5,206 bases of DNA from a virus (taxonomy: Duplodnaviria > Heunggongvirae > Uroviricota > Caudoviricetes). The stretch is from IMG/VR virus record IMGVR_UViG_2740892423_000010, positions 1 to 5,206 of that record, one strand, 5' to 3'. Each line of letters begins with the position of its first letter. Within the stretch, counting starts at the first letter, position 1. The notes under the pieces are model-generated. The model was not told the DNA's origin. It saw only the letters and a list, made by a program, of their open reading frames with translations, and searched no databases. The translations under genes were made by a program, and so were the position numbers. Shown here in pieces: positions 1-5,206 of this stretch.

Positions 1-87
1 CTCACTGAAGCTGAGAGCTTCTTCGCCTTCGGCAAGGCCTTCGAAGTATTCTTCGTAAGCCTTTTCCATGATTGTGTCGAAATCCAT
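1..87 (-). CDS. Partial small acidic hypothetical protein (start at 87, runs off left edge of window); translation begins MDFDTIMEKAYEEYFEGLAEGEEALSFSE
   Basis: Open frame on minus strand from ATG at 87..85 through position 1 with no stop. The ATG lies 1 nt after the upstream gene's TGA (TGATATG), suggesting coupled translation. Position matches a ydfB-like gene after ydfA in Qin-type prophages, but identity is not confirmed. Confidence 0.4.
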   Translation of the reverse strand, partial: MDFDTIMEKAYEEYFEGLAEGEEALSFSE

Positions 88-88
88 A

Positions 89-244
89 TCACTCGCCTGA
101 ATTTCTTTCCAGCCAGCGACGAGCGCCAGTTTCGGTTTTAAACGTTTTGCTTTTGGTATACGTCATCGCGGTGAATGTGCCGTCCTGGTTGGGAAACACG
201 CCGTATACCAGAGATTCGTTGTTGCCAAGATCGATAGTATCCAT
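89..244 (-). CDS. ydfA: Small phage protein, YdfA-like (51 aa: MDTIDLGNNESLVYGVFPNQDGTFTAMTYTKSKTFKTETGARRWLERNSGE)
   Basis: Minus-strand ORF ending with TGA at 91..89. I prefer the internal ATG at 244 because it is preceded by a GAGG Shine-Dalgarno about 5 nt upstream and gives a 51-aa product that matches my recollection of E. coli Qin-prophage YdfA. The ORF track's longer version starts at 322 (77 aa). Confidence 0.55.
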   Translation of the reverse strand: MDTIDLGNNESLVYGVFPNQDGTFTAMTYTKSKTFKTETGARRWLERNSGE

Positions 245-420: not shown

Positions 421-464
421 AATCTACAATTAAAAACTGTTTTGTGTCAACAGTTTTTAATTGT
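421..464 (-). promoter_or_regulatory. Operator-overlapping promoter for the ydfA-like operon: palindrome ACAATTAAAAACTGT-N9-ACAGTTTTTAATTGT (426..464) with minus-strand -35 TTGACA (450..445) and -10 TAGATT (426..421)
   Basis: Perfect 15-bp inverted repeat with 9-bp spacer read directly from sequence. On the minus strand the spacer contains a consensus TTGACA, followed 18 nt later by TAGATT. Near-identical to the palindrome at 1462..1500. Confidence 0.55.
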
Positions 465-517: not shown

Positions 518-805
518 TCAGATAGGGAAGGGAAATTGTCGGCGGGCATGCACAATATTTGCAATTTCAATGCTTGAAGCTGCTACTCGGTACAAAACGA
601 TATAATTAGGGTGAACCACAATTTCCCGCAAACCGGATACTCGATCACTTGGCGGATATAGATATGGATGCTCGGAGAGGGCTAAAACAGACGTTTCAAT
701 ACGTATTTTTAGTCTGCGTGCTGCAGGAATATTTTCCTTAGCAATATAGGCTACGATCTGACGCAAATCATCGCGAGCAGATGGTAGCCATAAAATGGGT
801 AACAT
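518..805 (-). CDS. parE: ParE/RelE-family type II toxin (95 aa)
   Basis: Translation has the ParE-like pattern (N-terminal DL..I..YI helix region, C-terminal YRV...I.I..I.HARR). Its ATG overlaps the upstream antitoxin stop by 1 nt (TAATG on minus strand), typical of toxin-antitoxin coupling. Confidence 0.88.
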   Translation of the reverse strand: MLPILWLPSARDDLRQIVAYIAKENIPAARRLKIRIETSVLALSEHPYLYPPSDRVSGLREIVVHPNYIVLYRVAASSIEIANIVHARRQFPFPI

Positions 806-996
806 TACTCGCTCCTGTTAGTTACAGCAATTTGAGCAATAAGATTTTCTATTTCAGCCATTACCTCGTCATGTGGAATTGAGGGACGAGGGTCTGCAAG
901 GCTTGACGCCACTTTAGCGCGCAACCATTCGTTGTAACTGTTTTCTTGTTCGGTAGTTTCGAATTCTGAAACTATCGGAGAAAGGGCTGTACTCAT
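805..996 (-). CDS. paaA: Small antitoxin, PaaA-like (ParE-associated antitoxin), 63 aa
   Basis: 63-aa ORF directly upstream of and overlapping the toxin start. Strong RBS (GAGGAG, about 7 nt spacing). N-terminal half (ALSP.VSEFET.EQENSYNEWLRAKVA.SLADPRP.IPHDEV) matches my recollection of PaaA2 from E. coli O157:H7; family assignment is not search-verified. Confidence 0.8.
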   Translation of the reverse strand: MSTALSPIVSEFETTEQENSYNEWLRAKVASSLADPRPSIPHDEVMAEIENLIAQIAVTNRSE

Positions 997-1023
997 GGCA
1001 TAACTCCTCTTCTTGTACAGTGG

Positions 1024-1425
1024 TCATGCCCGGCGGCTTTTTTGTGCCGCCAACCACCGGGCAATGGTTTCTTCCATTGATTTTTTCTTGTCTTTGATTT
1101 CTTGAAGCATTTTTTCTTGGTCTTCCTCTGGAAACGCACTAAAAGCCTGGAGCAGTTCGCGTTGGCGAGGGCCAATTTTCATCGTGTCAGGGGTGAAAAT
1201 TTGCTCCCCCTCTTCAGGAGGCAATAAAAACCAATGCAATGGATGCCCTGTAACCTCAACCAGTTTATCCAAACTTGAGGCTTTAGGTGTAGCCTTACCG
1301 CTGACCCATTGTTGAACAGTTTGTTGTGTCACACCAATTCTACGGGCCAGCTCAGCCTGGCTCCATCCAGTTTCCTGAAGAAGCTTGCTGATTCTGTACA
1401 TAGATACTTCTAGAGCGTTCATCAT
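1024..1425 (-). CDS. paaR: HTH XRE-family phage repressor, DicA/PaaR-type (CI analogue), 133 aa
   Basis: Helix-turn-helix motif (WSQAELARRIGVTQQTVQQWVSG) plus a C-terminal segment (ELLQAFSAFPEEDQEKMLQEI) resembling DicA-type repressors. Divergent from a Cro-like gene and co-oriented with the antitoxin/toxin. No SD before the ATG at 1425, but a TAAAAT -10 sits 6 nt upstream, suggesting a leaderless mRNA. Alternative in-frame start at 1401 (MYRISK...). Confidence 0.85.
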   Translation of the reverse strand: MMNALEVSMYRISKLLQETGWSQAELARRIGVTQQTVQQWVSGKATPKASSLDKLVEVTGHPLHWFLLPPEEGEQIFTPDTMKIGPRQRELLQAFSAFPEEDQEKMLQEIKDKKKSMEETIARWLAAQKSRRA

Positions 1426-1534
1426 TATTCAATTTTACAGGTAAATACTGTTAAAAGCATCACAATAAAAAACTGTTGATCGCGTACAGTTTTTTATTGT
1501 AGGCTTTGCCTGTAGTTTTTTAGAGGAGGGCAAA
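1426..1534. promoter_or_regulatory. Divergent immunity control region: operator palindrome ACAATAAAAAACTGT-N9-ACAGTTTTTTATTGT (1462..1500), candidate plus-strand promoter for the Cro-like gene (-35 TTGATC 1476..1481, -10 TAGGCT 1500..1505), candidate minus-strand repressor promoter (-10 TAAAAT = plus 1432..1437)
   Basis: Perfect 15-bp inverted repeat with 9-bp spacer read from sequence. Promoter hexamers are by-eye matches to sigma70 consensus. The plus-strand promoter and operator have the same geometry as the 421..464 unit. Strong RBS AGAGGAGGG (1522..1530) before the ATG at 1535. Possible degenerate half-site TGTAGTTTTTTAG at 1511..1523. Confidence 0.6.
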
Positions 1535-1807: not shown

Positions 1808-2342
1808 ACAGGTTCGTGAGGCTCTGGATGCCTGGGTATGCCGACCAGGAATGACACAGGAGCAGGCGACGATATTAATCACGGAAGCATTCTGGGCTCT
1901 GAAAAAACGCCCGAACATTGATGTTCAACGCGTCACGTTTGATGATGGCGCGGTTGATCAACGGGCGCTGGGCGTTAACCGGGTGAAGATATTCGAACGC
2001 TGGAAAGCTATCGACACCAGGGATAAGCGTGAAAAATTCACGGCGCTGATTCCGGCAATTATGGAGGCTATCCGGATCAGCGATTTCAGGTTGTATTGTG
2101 AAATTACTGACGGAAAAAGCATTACGTACATGATCGCCGGGTTAAACAAAGAATATGGCGATGTGGTGGAGTCCGGGCTGCTTTTTGCGGATCCAGCTGT
2201 TGTGGAACGTGAGACTGACGAGCTTATAGAAAAAGCTATTGCTTTCAAGCACGCGTATCGTCAGCAATACCAATATTACTTTGCAGATAAACAAATATCT
2301 GTCTGGGGTTCGTATGAGTATCGATGCACTACGATGGGCTAA
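1791..2342 (+). CDS. ydaT: YdaT-like protein (CII-analogue candidate), 183 aa
   Basis: ATG at 1791 overlaps the ydaS-like 3' end by 17 nt (coupled translation). Position immediately after a YdaS-type Cro matches the ydaS-ydaT pair of Rac/CP-933-type prophages. Family assignment rests on position and recalled similarity, not a search. Confidence 0.7.
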   Translation: MKITPEQVREALDAWVCRPGMTQEQATILITEAFWALKKRPNIDVQRVTFDDGAVDQRALGVNRVKIFERWKAIDTRDKREKFTALIPAIMEAIRISDFRLYCEITDGKSITYMIAGLNKEYGDVVESGLLFADPAVVERETDELIEKAIAFKHAYRQQYQYYFADKQISVWGSYEYRCTTMG

Positions 2343-3354
2343 AAAGGTGAAAACCGGCAGTTCATCCAGTAAGTCAGTATTGACCTGGCTTGCTGATATG
2401 TGCGGTGCCGATTTGTGTGCATACCCGTCTGTATCTGCCCTGGCAGAAGTAACGGAACTGAACAAAAAGACTGTGCAGGACAGCTTACGACACCTGATGG
2501 AGATTGGGTTAATTGTTGATACCGGTGAGAGAAAAGGCAGAACAAAGCAAATTGTGGTGTACCGACTTATCGGTGTAGAAGAAAGTGTTGCCGAGCCTGA
2601 ATACACCCAAAAACGGGAGTCTTTAAAGGTGGGTAAAATTGGTGCTGTTAATAAAAACAGTACCGAAAACGGTTATGTTTCAGCACAAAACAGACCCAAA
2701 AACGGAACTCTTAACTGCATGGAAAATAACCAAAGACACCCAAATTTTCCATTAAAGACACCCAAAAACGGATCACGGAACCCAAAGGAACCCAAAGATC
2801 TAAACCCCACACATAACGCACGCGAGAGTGCTCCGACCAGTGAGCAGGAAGTTTTGTCGTTACAGGCAGTGCCACCCGTATTCCTGGATGGCCTGAGCGA
2901 ACCCATCGGAAAATTTCCGATGACCGATAGCTGGCATCCGTCACGGGATTTTCGACGACGGGCTGCGTTGTGGGGGATGGCTTTGTCGGAGCCGGAATTT
3001 ACACCTGCTGAACTTGCCGCATTCCGGGATTACTGGAGCGATGAGGGCAAAGTGTTCACGCAGGTTCAGTGGGAGCAGAAATTCGCCCGTCACGTAAATC
3101 ACGTCAGGGCGCAGGTTAAACCAGTCAGCAAGGGGGTAAACCATGCAGCAGCACCAGGTGGCACCGCATCACGGGCAGTTCAGGAAATTCGGGCAGCACG
3201 TGAGCAGTGGGAACGTGAAAACGGATTTATCAGCGACGGAAACGGCGTGGAAGCTGTGGGAACTCATGGGGGAGGTTTATTCGAACCGCTGGACCCAGAA
3301 GAACGGGGCCGCACCTTCGAAGCTCTGGATTGCACAGATTGGCGCGATGACTGA
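2314..3354 (+). CDS. Replication initiator (lambda O functional analogue): N-terminal winged-helix domain plus C-terminal DnaT-like domain, 346 aa from ATG 2314
   Basis: N-terminus (LRWAKKV...SVSALAEVTELNKKTVQDSLRHLMEIGLI) resembles replication-initiator wHTH domains. C-terminal segment GKFPMTDSWHPSRDFRRRAALWGMALSEPEFTPAELAAFRDYWSDEGKVFTQVQWEQKFAR closely resembles the C-terminal region of E. coli primosomal protein DnaT as I recall it. The ORF track starts at a TTG (2239); I prefer ATG 2314, which has a GGGG SD-like element 5 nt upstream. Confidence 0.8.
   Translation: MSIDALRWAKKVKTGSSSSKSVLTWLADMCGADLCAYPSVSALAEVTELNKKTVQDSLRHLMEIGLIVDTGERKGRTKQIVVYRLIGVEESVAEPEYTQKRESLKVGKIGAVNKNSTENGYVSAQNRPKNGTLNCMENNQRHPNFPLKTPKNGSRNPKEPKDLNPTHNARESAPTSEQEVLSLQAVPPVFLDGLSEPIGKFPMTDSWHPSRDFRRRAALWGMALSEPEFTPAELAAFRDYWSDEGKVFTQVQWEQKFARHVNHVRAQVKPVSKGVNHAAAPGGTASRAVQEIRAAREQWERENGFISDGNGVEAVGTHGGGLFEPLDPEERGRTFEALDCTDWRDD
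2603..2799. repeat. Iteron-like direct repeats (consensus about GACACCCAAAAACGG) inside the initiator gene linker; candidate origin of replication
   Basis: Direct repeats read from sequence: ACACCCAAAAACGG 2603..2616, AGACCCAAAAACGG 2692..2705, GACACCCAAA 2735..2744, GACACCCAAAAACGG 2757..2771, GGAACCCAAAG 2778..2788 and 2788..2798, with a degenerate copy ACCGAAAACGG at 2662..2672. Several start-to-start spacings are about 22 bp or multiples. They encode a low-complexity PKNG-rich linker between the two protein domains. Confidence 0.5.
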
Positions 3355-3808
3355 GCAGCAAATCCGTCAGGTCTGCCGCCAGTGCATGGACCGCTGCCGG
3401 ACGGGTGAAACATGGCCTCCGGACCTGGCTGAGTTTGTGGCGCTGATTTCGGAGAGTGGGGCAAATCCATTTGGTCTGACGGTGGATGCTGTGATGGAGG
3501 AGTACCGCCGCTGGCGCAATGAGTCTTGGCGATACGACGGAAGTGATAAGTACCCGTGGTCTCAGCCTGTGCTGTATCACATTTGCCTCGAGATGCGTTC
3601 AAAGGGGATTGAGCGCCAGATGACCGAAGGGGAATTAAAACGGCTTGCAGAACGGCAACTGACGAAATGGGCAAAGCATGTTGGTAACGGACTGAGTGTT
3701 CCACCCGTCCGTAGGCAACTGGCAGCACCCATACGTCCTGCGGGACCAACGCCAATTGAGTTGCTGAAACAGGAATATGAACGCAGGAAAGCGGCTGGTT
3801 TTGTTTGA
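3143..3808 (+). CDS. Lambda P-like replication protein (helicase loader), 221 aa
   Basis: Strong SD (AGGGGG 3131..3136, 6 nt before ATG 3143). Translation ([14 protein letters not shown] ... [15 protein letters not shown] ... [10 protein letters not shown]) parallels lambda P as I recall it (PFLPSPGQFVAWCRE ... YPWKSNAHYWLVTNL ... ELRRKAADEL). Overlaps the 3' end of the initiator gene by 212 nt in a different frame. Confidence 0.8.
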
Positions 3809-3842
3809 GTTGAGAAGTAATTTTTACCGGGAGGAAATTTTA

Positions 3843-4613
3843 ATGGAAACCGTTTTTGATGCACTGAAAGCAATGGGAAAAGCCACGTCGGTGGAACTGG
3901 CCGCGCGACTTGATATCAGTCGTGAAGAAGTGCTGAACGAGCTGTGGGAACTCAAAAGAAATGGCGTCGTTGATAAAACAGGTCATACCTGGTTTCTGGC
4001 TGGTGAAGGTGAATCCGGGGTAACCGAAGAGCAGCCAGTACAATCTGAAGCACCGGATGTGCTAACCGGGGTGGGCGAACAAAAAGTTACCGCTGACATG
4101 ATGATTGAGTTTATCGGTCAGGAGGGGGCTAAAACGTGTGAGGAACTGGCGAGTAAGTTCGGTGTCAGCACTCGCAAGGTTGCTTCCACGCTGGCGGTAG
4201 TAACCGCAACGGGGAGGCTGGCACGCGTTAATCAGAACGGTAAATTTCGTTACTGCATACCGGGCGATAATTTACCAGCAGAACCGAAAGCCGCATTGGT
4301 AGCGGAAACTGATGGTAAATCCTTTCCTCAGCCAGCGGGGGTTGCGTTACCAGTACAGGAGGTTGCAACACAGGAAGATATTAAAACAGAAACTGTGGCG
4401 GACATTGTGCAGTCGTTGCCATCGTTCACTGAAACGCGAGCCAATGGCCTGATTTTACCATCTCTGCATATGGCAAACCGCGAACTTCGCCGGGCGAAAA
4501 GTCATGTCCAGAAGTGGGAGCGAGTCTGCGCCGCGCTGCGGGAGCTGAACAAGCACCGGGATATTGTCCGACAGATTGTCGATTCCTCCAGTCGTATTGT
4601 GTCGGAAAAGTGA
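3843..4613 (+). CDS. Hypothetical phage protein with two tandem winged-helix-like modules and a basic C-terminal helix, 257 aa
   Basis: Strong RBS (GGGAGG 3830..3835, 7 nt before ATG 3843); the ORF track's upstream ATG at 3777 has no usable SD and overlaps the P-like stop. Two internally similar wHTH-like segments ([30 protein letters not shown] and [30 protein letters not shown]). Function unknown. Confidence 0.7.
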
Positions 4614-4629
4614 TTCCAGGGGAGGGCTT

Positions 4630-5052
4630 ATGGCAAAAGTATCTACACAGGAAGAGCGGGAAAAAATTAAAGGGCAGGTTGTTGAACTCGTACGCCAGAG
4701 TGGGCGTGAGACGTTACGACAACTGGAAGCGAAAACAGGTGCGACAAGATATCTGATGAGCGTTCTCGCCAGAGAGCTGGTTGCCAGTGGCGATGTATAC
4801 AACTCTGGTTACGGGTTATTTCCGTCTGAACAGGCGCGTAAGGACTGGCAAAACGCCCGCAAAAAACTCTCAAGGGCAAAGGTGAAGAAAACGGCTGTGG
4901 TTGATCCGGACCTTATCAGGTCATTACCTGACGGAGAAATACGCCGCTACGACAGGCGTCAAAACATAATTTGCCGTGAGTGCCGGAAAAGCGAAGTTAT
5001 GCAGCGTGTACTGGCGTTTTATCGGGGAAACTTTCAGGAGGTGATGCTGTGA
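4630..5052 (+). CDS. Hypothetical phage protein with one winged-helix-like module, 141 aa
   Basis: Strong RBS (AGGGGAGGG 4618..4626) before ATG 4630; the ORF track's TTG at 4564 overlaps the previous gene. Segment ETLRQLEAKTGATRYLMSVLARELVASGDV resembles the wHTH modules of the upstream gene. Basic, Lys/Arg-rich C-terminal half. Confidence 0.65.
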   Translation: MAKVSTQEEREKIKGQVVELVRQSGRETLRQLEAKTGATRYLMSVLARELVASGDVYNSGYGLFPSEQARKDWQNARKKLSRAKVKKTAVVDPDLIRSLPDGEIRRYDRRQNIICRECRKSEVMQRVLAFYRGNFQEVML

Positions 5053-5206
5053 GCGAATCAAAATGTCAGGTTAATAGCAATCAGATAGAACCATGTGCGG
5101 TACTGGCAAAAGCCCTTGAGCATGATGCTGAATACACGACGCGAAAAGGTCTGCTGATATACAAAATCTGGAATGAGAGTTTAACTCGCGGCCCTGATTT
5201 GGTGAT
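5049..5206 (+). CDS. Partial hypothetical CDS (candidate GTG start at 5049, runs off right edge); VSESKCQVNSNQIEPCAVLAKALEHDAEYTTRKGLLIYKIWNESLTRGPDLV...
   Basis: Open frame to the window end. GTG overlaps the upstream stop (GTGA) and is preceded by AGGAGG (5036..5041). No family recognised. Confidence 0.3.
   Translation, partial: MSESKCQVNSNQIEPCAVLAKALEHDAEYTTRKGLLIYKIWNESLTRGPDLV

Follow-up and report, generated by a model that had tools for sequence, protein, structure and literature searches.

Introduction

A described relative of one of the genes studied here is ren of bacteriophage lambda. Heteroimmune lambda phages lacking ren are reported to grow poorly on Rex+ lysogens, suppressors of the ren-minus defect map to O and P, and two-hybrid assays show interactions of both Rex proteins, RexA and RexB, with Ren as well as with O (10.1101/2021.04.19.439022). 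The same report attributes to Weigel and Seitz the observation that ren accompanies initiator-helicase-loader modules. Lambda ren starts at position 40280, overlaps the end of P (40283), and is translated together with O and P. A second described relative is ydaW (b1361) of the Rac prophage of E. coli K-12, which appears in a list of E. coli proteins predicted to be transcription factors, with no function given (PMC9308461). When overexpressed, it acted as a "blocker" of RcaT, the toxin of retron-Sen2 (10.1101/2020.06.22.160242). DUF977, a domain family relevant to this locus, has been called a winged-helix DNA-binding domain on the basis of HHpred/COMPASS comparisons, and some of its members are fused to Fic domains (PMC2686095). 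The literature we found on DUF1627, DUF977, and LygF consists of incidental mentions only.

Here, we analyze two adjacent genes, A and B, in a stretch of 5,206 nucleotides (the window). Both belong to very common, already catalogued early-gene families of E. coli lambdoid prophages and are ordinary in this setting. Most E. coli genomes carry members of these families.

Results

Genomic Context of Genes A and B

In a Rac-like lambdoid prophage, genes A and B come directly after the replication genes (Table 1). The position downstream of replication genes, recognized in an earlier sequence-only reading of this DNA, was confirmed by the two genes that precede A, which code for a YdaU-like protein with a DnaT domain and a lambda-P-like protein. 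Iteron-like repeats are located at 2599-2796, within the YdaU-like gene, whose stop codon is overlapped by the ATG of the P-like gene (ATGA); for the latter, we adopted the start annotated in RefSeq for the STEC383 homologue. At the other end of the pair, the GTG codon of the next gene (5049) overlaps the B stop codon (GTGA), and a GGAGG sequence is present at 5036-5040. No convincing promoter-like sites or plus-strand terminator-like sites were found between positions 3300 and 5206, and no Rfam family reached its gathering score within the window. Since internal promoters and terminators were not detected, intergenic gaps are short or overlapping, and Shine-Dalgarno sites are good, A and B are probably expressed in one early operon. 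The window is devoid of rexAB; the immunity slot is occupied by a ParE/PaaA2 toxin-antitoxin pair.

ORF A extends from the ATG at 3843 to the TGA at 4611-4613 and ORF B from the ATG at 4630 to the TGA at 5050-5052, with 16 nt separating the A stop from the B start. The two genes reported earlier, with products of 257 and 141 residues, are real, but the products are 256 and 140 residues long (the value of 257 includes the stop codon). The ORF list offered longer versions starting at 3777 (A) and 4564 (B); neither is supported, because all family members start with METV... and MAKV..., respectively. Each gene has a good Shine-Dalgarno site, as had been claimed, and each is under purifying selection: among IMG/VR copies, pairwise dN/dS has a median of 0.34 in A (0.19-0.41 in the individual modules) and of 0.10 in B. 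No positive selection was seen in either gene, pairwise dN/dS being well below 1 in every module.

Table 1. Features of the locus, in window coordinates.
Feature	Position	Strand	Basis
YdaU-like replication initiator, DnaT DNA-binding domain	2314..3354	+	Pfam DnaT 1.2e-17; phrog_1032 replication initiation protein
Lambda-P-like helicase loader	3347..3808	+	Pfam Phage_lambda_P 1.8e-16; phrog_109
Shine-Dalgarno GGGAGG of gene A	3829..3834	+	8 nt upstream of ATG; read off sequence
Gene A, full-length YdaW-family protein (DUF1627, phrog_630), 256 aa	3843..4613	+	Pfam, PHROG, identity, dN/dS
A, winged helix 1 (WH1), residues 1-55	3843..4007	+	AF2 block pLDDT 95-98, alignment, charges
A, linker 1, variable, acidic, predicted disordered, residues 56-83	4008..4091	+	pLDDT, alignment
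A, winged helix 2 (WH2), residues 84-140	4092..4262	+	AF2 block pLDDT 94-96, hhalign, charges
A, linker 2, Pro/Glu-rich, predicted disordered, residues 141-183	4263..4391	+	pLDDT ~45
A, C-terminal helical domain, conserved, basic, residues 184-256	4392..4610	+	AF2, IMG/VR identities
Shine-Dalgarno GGAGG of gene B	4621..4625	+	4 nt upstream of ATG; read off sequence
Gene B, DUF977/LygF protein, Ren family (phrog_142), 140 aa, pI 10	4630..5052	+	Pfam, PHROG, hhalign, dN/dS
B, winged helix, residues 7-64	4648..4821	+	AF2 block pLDDT 86-94, Foldseek
B, basic segment, residues 65-111	4822..4962	+	Alignment, charge, pLDDT; largely insertion vs lambda Ren
B, Ren C-terminal motif, residues 112-131, N-I-I-C-R-E-C-R-K-S-E-V-M-Q-R-V-L-A-F-Y	4963..5022	+	BLASTP, alignment
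Next gene after B, phrog_4030 (3.8e-17), continuing beyond window end	5049..5206	+	Sequence, PHROG

Identity and Domain Layout of A

The earlier reading could assign no function to either protein, but both matched known families. A scored 321.3 bits against Pfam DUF1627 (PF07789; cutoff 28.1, E 1.2e-96) and matched phrog_630 over residues 1-252 (E 6.5e-136). The Pfam match aligned A residues 91-245 with model positions 1-155 of 155; WH1 thus lies outside the curated family definition. Across its full length, A shares 74% identity with the ydaW product of Rac-SA53, an inducible phage, and it is 63% identical to K-12 YdaW (154 aa, residues 1-154). A is the full-length form of K-12 YdaW. The K-12 protein belongs to the same family and is encoded in the same slot directly after replication genes, but it is truncated: of its 186 residues, only the first ~154 are similar to A, and it contains only the two winged helices, while linker 2 and the C-terminal domain are absent. 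Many other database entries of the family are also fragments or fusions.

AlphaFold2 (AF2) modeled helix-helix-helix-hairpin units at A residues 1-55 and 84-138 (block pLDDT 94-98). The first, WH1, is acidic (net charge −3), with a net charge of −1.7 at the recognition-helix position; it is the most conserved winged helix in sequence, L34 and W50 being invariant in the alignment of relatives. WH2 is basic (net charge +3), with both helix 3 and the wing positive; by hhalign, it is the A module closest to the winged helix of Ren and B. The charge pattern is kept in 42 relatives of A (20-84% identity), with means of −2.1 for WH1, +3.7 for WH2, and +4.6 for the C-terminal domain. These 42 full-length relatives align across all three conserved blocks, and the same architecture is retained at 20-50% identity across several Enterobacterales genera. 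Linker 1 aligns poorly among relatives, and its pLDDT falls below 50 at residues 61-76; for linker 2, the family net charge averages −4.5.

The most conserved part of A is the C-terminal domain (IPSFT...P...ANRELRRAK..., 16 further letters not shown), which is not a winged helix and was absent from the earlier description of A as a protein of two modules. It is predicted to form helices at residues 208-237 and 239-255 (pLDDT 90-95). Its sequence is 75-97% identical among IMG/VR copies, compared with 42-95% for WH1 and WH2, and it is kept in variants that have one winged helix. The winged-helix modules recombine independently and, among E. coli-type copies, vary far more than the C-terminal domain. 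A comparison of this domain with B or Ren by hhalign revealed no similarity (probability ≤0.3%).

Relationship of B to Lambda Ren

B matched Pfam DUF977 (PF06163) over its whole length with 111.3 bits (cutoff 22.1, E 4.7e-32), and it is 67-97% identical to LygF-annotated proteins of phage records. No substantial difference distinguishes B from the DUF977/"LygF" proteins of the Salmonella Enteritidis Sdf region and of many E. coli and Shigella prophages; B lacks a Fic fusion. The LygF family name carries no functional information. Both B (E 5.8e-47) and lambda Ren (E 1.6e-41) matched phrog_142 from end to end. A comparison of the Ren and B profiles by hhalign gave a probability of 96.3% (E 1.9e-9), while shuffled controls gave E values of 0.02 or worse, and BLASTP found 11 of 20 positions identical in the C-terminal motif (E 2e-6). 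B is a DUF977/LygF protein and a longer relative of lambda Ren. Clear homology to a well-characterized family would have countered the sequence-only reading; Ren qualifies only by half, having a genetic phenotype and interaction partners rather than an established biochemical mechanism.

Lambda Ren (96 aa) and B share an N-terminal winged helix followed by the motif N-x-I/V-x-x-E-C-R-x-S-x-x-M-x-R-V-L-A-x-Y. Both proteins are basic, with a pI of about 10, and both are encoded by early-operon genes downstream of replication genes. Residues N112 and C118 of B are invariant in 19 sequences of B and Ren relatives, and E117, R119, and I114 are conserved in at least 90% of them. The two proteins differ in several respects. 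They are ~24% identical in the alignment, and B has an N-terminal extension and a basic insertion of ~45 residues. The CxxC arrangement (C115/C118) is found only in the B branch, whereas Ren has a single Cys at this place. Ren reaches no Pfam family. The lambda gene arrangement is not found for B, which does not overlap the P-like gene and is separated from it by gene A.

B had been described as a third winged-helix module with a basic tail. The winged helix holds; the basic part is in the middle of the protein (residues 65-115, net charge +7) and is followed by the Ren motif. AF2 predicted a helix at residues 67-82, low confidence thereafter (pLDDT 40-51 past residue 86), and modeled the C-terminal motif with low confidence as well.

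Kinship and Fold Comparisons of the Three Winged Helices

AF2 predicted three winged helices with confidence, two in A and one in B, and Foldseek matches of both proteins were to winged-helix proteins only (MarR, GntR, MntR, and Zalpha in the case of B), in agreement with the folds proposed from sequence alone. The proposed relatedness of the modules held at the profile level, where hhalign aligned WH1 with WH2 in register over 48 columns (probability 93.8%, E 1.7e-7); in this register, a manual count gave ~19% identity, and BLASTP found no match between the two. WH2 and the winged helix of B could be aligned by BLASTP (12/32 identities, E 0.002). The hhalign probabilities were 70% for this pair, 77% for WH2 and Ren, and 37% for WH1 and the B winged helix; none of 30 column-shuffled controls did better than E 0.01. 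The modules scored comparably against generic HTH Pfam families. A recent internal duplication or triplication was rejected, given the blank BLASTP comparison and kinship at the profile level only. The three modules probably share common winged-helix superfamily descent, with a recent triplication not demonstrable from these comparisons.

MarR/ArsR/GntR/TrmB-type thresholds of Pfam were not reached: WH2 matched HTH_PafC (26 vs. 32) and HTH_11 (24.6 vs. 25) below threshold, and the TrmB score was 22.6 vs. 25.6. FeoC, at 22.0 bits vs. a cutoff of 21, was the sole HTH-family match over threshold, and a marginal one; NCBIfam matches were far below cutoff. A PDB-profile search for solved structures of A or B relatives returned generic winged helices only.

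The top Foldseek and PDB-profile matches of A were tandem winged-helix proteins (ScpB, the C-terminus of SelB, ESCRT-II subunits, and the Zalpha-Zbeta proteins ADAR1, ZBP1, and PKZ), which, like A, have two compact three-helix-plus-hairpin winged helices per chain. The matches were weak (Foldseek E >1e-3; ~17 bits per Zalpha/Zbeta domain). Unlike in these proteins, the A modules are unpacked and joined by a disordered linker of ~28 residues, and the C-terminal domain of A has no counterpart among them. Matches to ADAR1, ZBP1, PKZ, and ORF112 raised the possibility of Zalpha-type binding of Z-DNA or Z-RNA, which was rejected because the contact residues, which we take to be N173 and Y177 of helix 3 and W195 of the wing in ADAR1, are missing. 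At the N173/Y177 positions, WH2 has A113 and A117 (HMMER alignment to Zalpha and Zbeta), while manual alignment places M43 and A47 of B and L31 and W35 of WH1 there, the WH1 family consensus at the Y177-equivalent position being Arg.

Distribution and Separability of A and B

Of 5426 complete E. coli genomes, 4604 contain DNA that resembles some or all of the A-B pair. Both families are also found in isolated phages, induced as well as infective ones, and in Shiga-toxin-converting phages. Gene A occupies the slot after replication genes in the window, K-12 Rac, Rac-SA53, Shigella phage 75/02, and PPompW, and it directly follows P-like, DnaC-like, or DnaT-like genes in Escherichia, Citrobacter, Enterobacter, Salmonella, and Buttiauxella. 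In 10 of 10 more distant Enterobacterales loci, A homologues also came right after replication genes, with the upstream gene identifiable in six (a DnaC/IstB-like gene at four loci, a DnaT-like gene at one, and Phg_2220_C at one; no clear Pfam match was obtained at the remaining four). At loci lacking A, B directly follows the last replication gene after a gap of ~40 nt, just as lambda ren sits after P. B also follows modules other than the initiator/helicase-loader type.

The sequence-only reading had treated the two genes as a unit built from three modules, but they occur independently of each other. Twelve phage records contained both genes, 12 contained A only, and 12 contained B only. About 30 of 80 IMG/VR loci with B were without A, and among 18 species-level loci with A, an adjoining B was seen only in E. 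albertii. A and B are separable, independent cassettes; an obligate two-gene system was rejected, as each gene occurs without the other.

Discussion

The analysis ties DUF977/LygF to lambda Ren, encoded by one of the few genes still unexplained in the best-studied of phages, and defines the domain logic of full-length YdaW as an acidic winged helix followed by a basic one and by a conserved C-terminal domain. Identities, folds, layout, selection, synteny, and separability come from the comparisons above; any activity of A and B is what we infer from them. The earlier guess that this position is an accessory or anti-exclusion slot was a reasonable one. Our preferred reading, held tentatively and at somewhat short of an even chance, is that A and B serve, independently of each other, as accessory genes in the rightward early (replication) operon of a lambdoid prophage of the Rac-like kind, with B being Ren-like and A an adaptor. 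By analogy with Ren, B would let replication by the phage's own initiator and helicase loader proceed in a cell with Rex-type exclusion; it would most likely bind exclusion proteins and/or the initiator, rather than act as a classical operator-binding repressor. A, as an intact YdaW, may be a modular adaptor of the beads-on-a-string type, with WH1, WH2, and the C-terminal domain strung on two disordered acidic linkers. The acidic WH1 is probably protein-binding and the basic WH2 probably nucleic-acid-binding, while the basic C-terminal domain, the constant core of the family, probably serves oligomerization or target binding. The conserved slot of A after replication genes of any type suggests that A works together with the replication complex of the phage or shields it, though this position may instead reflect operon order in mosaic lambdoid genomes. 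Several observations count against a Ren-like role of B: the low identity to Ren, the basic insert, the intervening gene A and 16-nt gap, the lack of rexAB in the window, the occurrence of B after modules of other types, and the low model confidence of the C-terminal motif.

Basic surfaces on winged helices would fit plain transcription factors just as well. A and B might be ordinary sequence-specific winged-helix regulators that tune delayed-early phage genes or host genes, with no direct part in replication or defense evasion, a reading that we consider unlikely but deserving of real weight. The nearest structural and sequence neighbors of all three modules include MarR, ArsR, GntR, TrmB, and DtxR-type regulators, and WH2 and B as a whole are basic; the listing of K-12 YdaW as a predicted transcription factor (PMC9308461) and the description of DUF977 as DNA-binding (PMC2686095) point the same way. 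Against this, HTH-family matches in Pfam and NCBIfam were below cutoff, save the marginal FeoC, and the recognition-helix position of WH1 is acidic family-wide. Foldseek also matched A to ScpB and ESCRT-II, whose winged helices bind protein rather than DNA. The parts that define the two families, the C-terminal domain of A and the C-terminal motif of B, are not DNA-reading heads, and the known partners of lambda Ren are proteins (10.1101/2021.04.19.439022).

Rather improbable, in our estimate, is the proposal that both are dedicated anti-defense proteins acting by direct binding and independently of replication, A against an abortive-infection toxin, of the retron type or another, and B against Rex-like exclusion. 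It draws on the recovery of ydaW, along with other prophage genes, as a blocker of RcaT toxicity in a TIC/TAC screen (10.1101/2020.06.22.160242), and on the ability of Ren to counteract Rex exclusion and bind RexA and RexB (10.1101/2021.04.19.439022). The filing of phrog_142 ("Ren-like exclusion protein") by PHROGs under "moron, auxiliary metabolic gene and host takeover", the far greater variability and independent recombination of the A winged helices in E. coli-type copies, and the shuffling of A and B as independent cassettes are also in its favor. However, the retron result comes from a single overexpression screen with a truncated protein, in which lowered toxin expression or some other indirect effect could account for the outcome, and the text of that report, as far as it was available, does not name ydaW among the 11 re-validated hits (10.1101/2020.06.22.160242). 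The dN/dS values of 0.10-0.34, with no module near 1, also speak against the proposal, and the ren suppressors in O and P point to replication (10.1101/2021.04.19.439022). PADLOC returned only weak matches of the A winged helices to CARF/Csa3-type winged-helix domains, and none for B or Ren; A and B were rejected as known defense proteins on this ground, while for an anti-defense role the result is weak contrary evidence, since PADLOC models describe defense rather than anti-defense proteins.

A broader and more speculative idea, to which we assign a low probability, is that the post-replication slot of Rac-like and Stx-type lambdoid prophages is an "anti-abortive-infection" locus. In such a locus, full-length YdaW-type proteins would carry interchangeable winged-helix heads on an unvarying C-terminal domain and use them to capture or mimic nucleic-acid-linked defense components (for example, retron msDNA-RT-toxin complexes), while Ren-type proteins would disarm Rex-like membrane exclusion. 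If this were true, the A and B genes would decide in which E. coli lysogens temperate phages, including Stx phages, replicate.

That A and B are decaying or non-functional prophage remnants, as the truncated K-12 Rac ydaW and the many fragments and fusions in databases might suggest, is highly improbable, given their intact ORFs with Shine-Dalgarno sites, dN/dS values, presence in induced and infective phages, and, for A, an architecture conserved across several Enterobacterales genera.

Genes A and B in the probable early operon

The 5.2-kb window corresponds to the region for immunity and replication in a Rac-like lambdoid prophage from Escherichia, and its matches among phage records (megablast) are Rac-type, PPompW, and Stx-converting phages. 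The sequence-only reading had placed two adjacent genes with strong ribosome binding sites downstream of the replication genes, and our analysis agreed. Gene A (256 aa, GGGAGG 8 nt before the start) lies directly 3′ of the lambda-P-like gene and is followed by gene B (140 aa, GGAGG 4 nt before the start). Upstream starts at 3777 (A) and 4564 (B) in the ORF table were rejected, because all relatives begin at METV... and MAKV.... In de-replicated IMG/VR copies, median pairwise dN/dS was 0.34 for A (0.19–0.41 for its modules) and 0.10 for B. Thus, both are functional coding genes under purifying selection; that they are decaying remnants is ruled out by selection and conservation.

Features of the window and of proteins A and B
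Feature	Position	Strand	Remarks
DUF1391 gene	89–322	minus	77 aa; Pfam 6.3e-28; position like ydaF in K-12 Rac; function unknown
Palindrome ACAATTAAAAACTGTT-7 nt-AACAGTTTTTAATTGT	426–464		just past parE
ParE toxin gene	518–805	minus	leftward from divergent control region
PaaA2-type antitoxin gene	805–996	minus	leftward from divergent control region
HTH_3 repressor-like gene	1024–1425	minus	leftward from divergent control region
Palindrome ACAATAAAAAACTGT-9 nt-ACAGTTTTTTATTGT	1462–1500		repressor/cro-like intergenic region
YdaS/Cro-like gene	1535–1807	plus	rightward
YdaT-like gene	1791–2342	plus	rightward
YdaU-like initiator gene	2314–3354	plus	rightward; with DnaT domain
Iteron-like copies of AAAGACACCCAAA	2599–2796		five copies, three extending to ...AAAACGG
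Lambda-P-like loader gene	3347–3808	plus	rightward
Gene A	3843–4613	plus	
Gene B	4630–5052	plus	
Small gene 3′ of B	5049–5206	plus	GTG start; GGAGG 8 nt before start
A, winged helices WH1 and WH2	residues 1–55 and 84–138		AlphaFold2, block pLDDT 94–98
A, predicted disordered	residues ~56–83 and 141–183		AlphaFold2
A, C-terminal pair of long helices	residues 208–255		AlphaFold2, confident
B, winged helix	residues 7–64		model, block pLDDT 86–94
B, helix	residues 67–82		model
B, low-confidence stretch	residues 86–115		model
B, C-terminal helix			poorly modelled

The YdaS-like and YdaT-like genes share 17 nt (1791–1807), the ends of the YdaU-like and P-like genes overlap (ATGACTGA, 3347–3354), and gene B overlaps the next gene by GTGA (5049–5052). 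This run of overlapping starts and stops suggests that translation is coupled along the early operon. No promoter-like and no plus-strand terminator-like site was found in 3300–5206, so A and B most likely share the early transcript of the replication genes. The only match of the gene after B was phrog_4030 (function unknown), with no Pfam family; a phrog_4030 gene lies downstream of B in only a subset of related loci.

Protein B and lambda Ren

The sequence-only reading could assign no function to either protein. Profile searches placed A in DUF1627 (321 bits versus a cutoff of 28.1) and B in DUF977 (111 bits versus 22.1); these family identities are secure. DUF977 has been described as a winged-helix domain, in some cases fused to Fic (PMC2686095). 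B is annotated as LygF in many phage records and matches phrog_142, "Ren-like exclusion protein", as does lambda Ren (from J02459; 1.6e-41). Lambda Ren reaches no Pfam family, and the DUF977–Ren link therefore rests on PHROGs and the present comparisons. The two proteins share the C-terminal motif N-x-I-x-x-E-C-R-x-S-x-x-M-x-R-V-L-A-x-Y (11/20 identical, E 2e-6), and the Ren and B family profiles match with 96.3% probability. Compared with Ren, B is extended at its N-terminus and has a basic insertion of ~45 residues.

One preprint (bioRxiv 10.1101/2021.04.19.439022, supplement) states that lambda O, P, and ren have terminal overlaps and are co-translated, that ren goes with initiator–helicase-loader modules (citing Weigel and Seitz 2006), and that ren-minus heteroimmune lambda grows poorly on Rex+ lysogens, with suppressors of the defect in O and P (citing Toothman and Herskowitz 1980). 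The same source reports a RexB–Ren interaction in yeast two-hybrid and, in BACTH, interactions of RexA and RexB with O and Ren. Neither P-lethality nor replicative killing requires Ren (PMC3640518), and plaques can form without Ren after correction of polarity (PMC10695390).

Downstream of an A relative in a Scandinavium sp. MAG (L105), a 145-aa ORF (4585–5022) combines a winged-helix-like N-terminus with a C-terminal ...AEQCRRNWRGYHIHKIFG that, judged by eye, is like the Ren motif. The B/Ren HMMs, run to E 0.05, did not detect this ORF, which may be a highly diverged Ren-like gene.

Protein A and the YdaW family

Protein A, which also matches phrog_630, shares 63% identity with E. coli K-12 YdaW across residues 1–154, beyond which YdaW diverges and ends at 186 aa; identity with ydaW of the inducible phage Rac-SA53 is 74% over the full length. 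Literature mentions of DUF1627 itself were limited to its use as a marker of synteny near Pas sRNAs. The family is small (184 50%-identity cluster representatives among 1.84 billion, E ≤1e-3), and its 18 loci in species-representative genomes are nearly all from named Enterobacterales. Its architecture and charge pattern are kept, with family mean net charges of −2.1 in WH1 (−1.7 at the helix-3 position), +3.7 in WH2, and +4.6 in the C-terminal helical domain (C-domain, residues 184–256). Among E. coli-type copies, WH1 and WH2 vary independently of each other (42–95% identity), and the C-domain is the least variable part (75–97%). Natural variants of 117–169 aa consist of one winged helix and the C-domain, and some ORFs join a replication-protein N-terminus to the C-domain (P0383, P0388, P0418, P0367, P0362, and P0377 for both kinds); such forms may be deletion products or true alternative architectures. 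Since the C-domain is least variable and is retained with one winged helix, it is, as judged from these alignments, the constant core of the family.

Kinship of the three modules

The predicted winged-helix folds were recovered by modeling, two in A (AlphaFold2, alignment of 42 sequences with relatives at 20–84% identity, mean pLDDT 79.9) and one in B (alignment of B and Ren relatives). Foldseek against PDB and BFVD returned winged-helix proteins only, tandem (ScpB, SelB, ESCRT-II, UFL1/DDRGK1) and single (MarR, ArsR, GntR, Zalpha, FeoC), with no PDB match better than E 1e-3; sequence searches of PDB gave nothing specific for either protein. A Zalpha lead was rejected: the summed E of 3.3e-8 for ADAR1 comprised two matches of ~17 bits each, and the Z-DNA contact residues did not agree.

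The proposed relatedness of the three modules stood at the profile level. BLASTP matched WH2 to the B winged helix (12/32 identities, E 0.002) and was blind to WH1–WH2, while hhalign aligned WH1 and WH2 in register over 48 columns (93.8% probability, E 1.7e-7), WH2 with Ren (77%, E 2e-5), WH2 with the B module (70%, E 3.9e-5), and WH1 with the B module (37%, E 3.6e-4). None of the column-shuffled controls (30 per pair) was better than E 0.01, so the similarity is real. The modules' resemblance to generic HTH families in Pfam is about as strong, however, which points to a shared winged-helix ancestry rather than a demonstrably recent triplication.

Distribution and position

Of 5426 complete E. 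coli genomes, 4604 contain DNA similar to part of 3843–5052, and 1513 contain at least 80% of this segment. A and B belong to catalogued, near-ubiquitous prophage gene families that are already known, and the finding is real but ordinary. The best complete E. coli genome covers 71% of the window at 96% identity, and none holds at least 80% of it in one place; 3843–5052 alone is 99.9% identical to the Stx2e prophage of STEC383; by these matches, the window is a mosaic of exchangeable modules.

A and B are no obligate pair. Phage records included 12 with both, 12 with A only (e.g., PPompW phages), and 12 with B only (e.g., HannyBb); about 30 of 80 IMG/VR loci with B had no A upstream, and B adjoined the A relative in 1 of the 18 species-representative genomes (E. 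albertii). What is conserved is position. In the examined records of phages and prophages, A directly follows the last replication gene, P-like or DnaC-like, and B does so in loci without A. Of 10 more distant loci, four had a DnaC/IstB-like, one a DnaT-like, and one a Phg_2220_C gene immediately upstream of A; in the other four, the upstream gene had no clear Pfam match.

Possible functions

We rank highest the reading that the early replication operon encodes A and B as accessory proteins, with a mechanism that we infer as follows. By analogy with Ren, B would make protein contacts that shield replication dependent on the initiator and loader from a Rex-type exclusion system. A would serve as a modular adaptor with two winged helices, one binding protein and the other nucleic acid, and with the constant C-domain; it would act with or protect the replication complex. 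There are two main rivals. A and B could be plain transcription factors; YdaW is listed as a predicted one (PMC9308461). Alternatively, they could be anti-defence proteins acting independently of replication. In an overexpression screen (bioRxiv 10.1101/2020.06.22.160242), K-12 ydaW came up as one of the prophage "blockers" of RcaT, the toxin of retron-Sen2; for YdaW, this is the sole functional datum found in the literature. PADLOC returned nothing specific for A or B, nor did Rfam for the window. Interest in the two genes is modest and comes mostly from Ren and YdaW, which are still unexplained and now easy to test.

Immunity side and candidate DNA elements

Downstream of the repressor-like gene, where lambda has rexA–rexB, the window has the PaaA2-type antitoxin and ParE toxin genes. 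This layout (518–1425, minus strand) resembles a three-gene PaaR-PaaA-ParE-type toxin-antitoxin module at a prophage immunity position. The leftward operon is flanked by two related perfect palindromes (76–80% alike), which look like operators of one repressor; the parE-side palindrome could also be a terminator. The iteron-like copies are inside the YdaU/DnaT-like initiator gene, in its linker region, and, as in lambda O, probably mark the phage replication origin.
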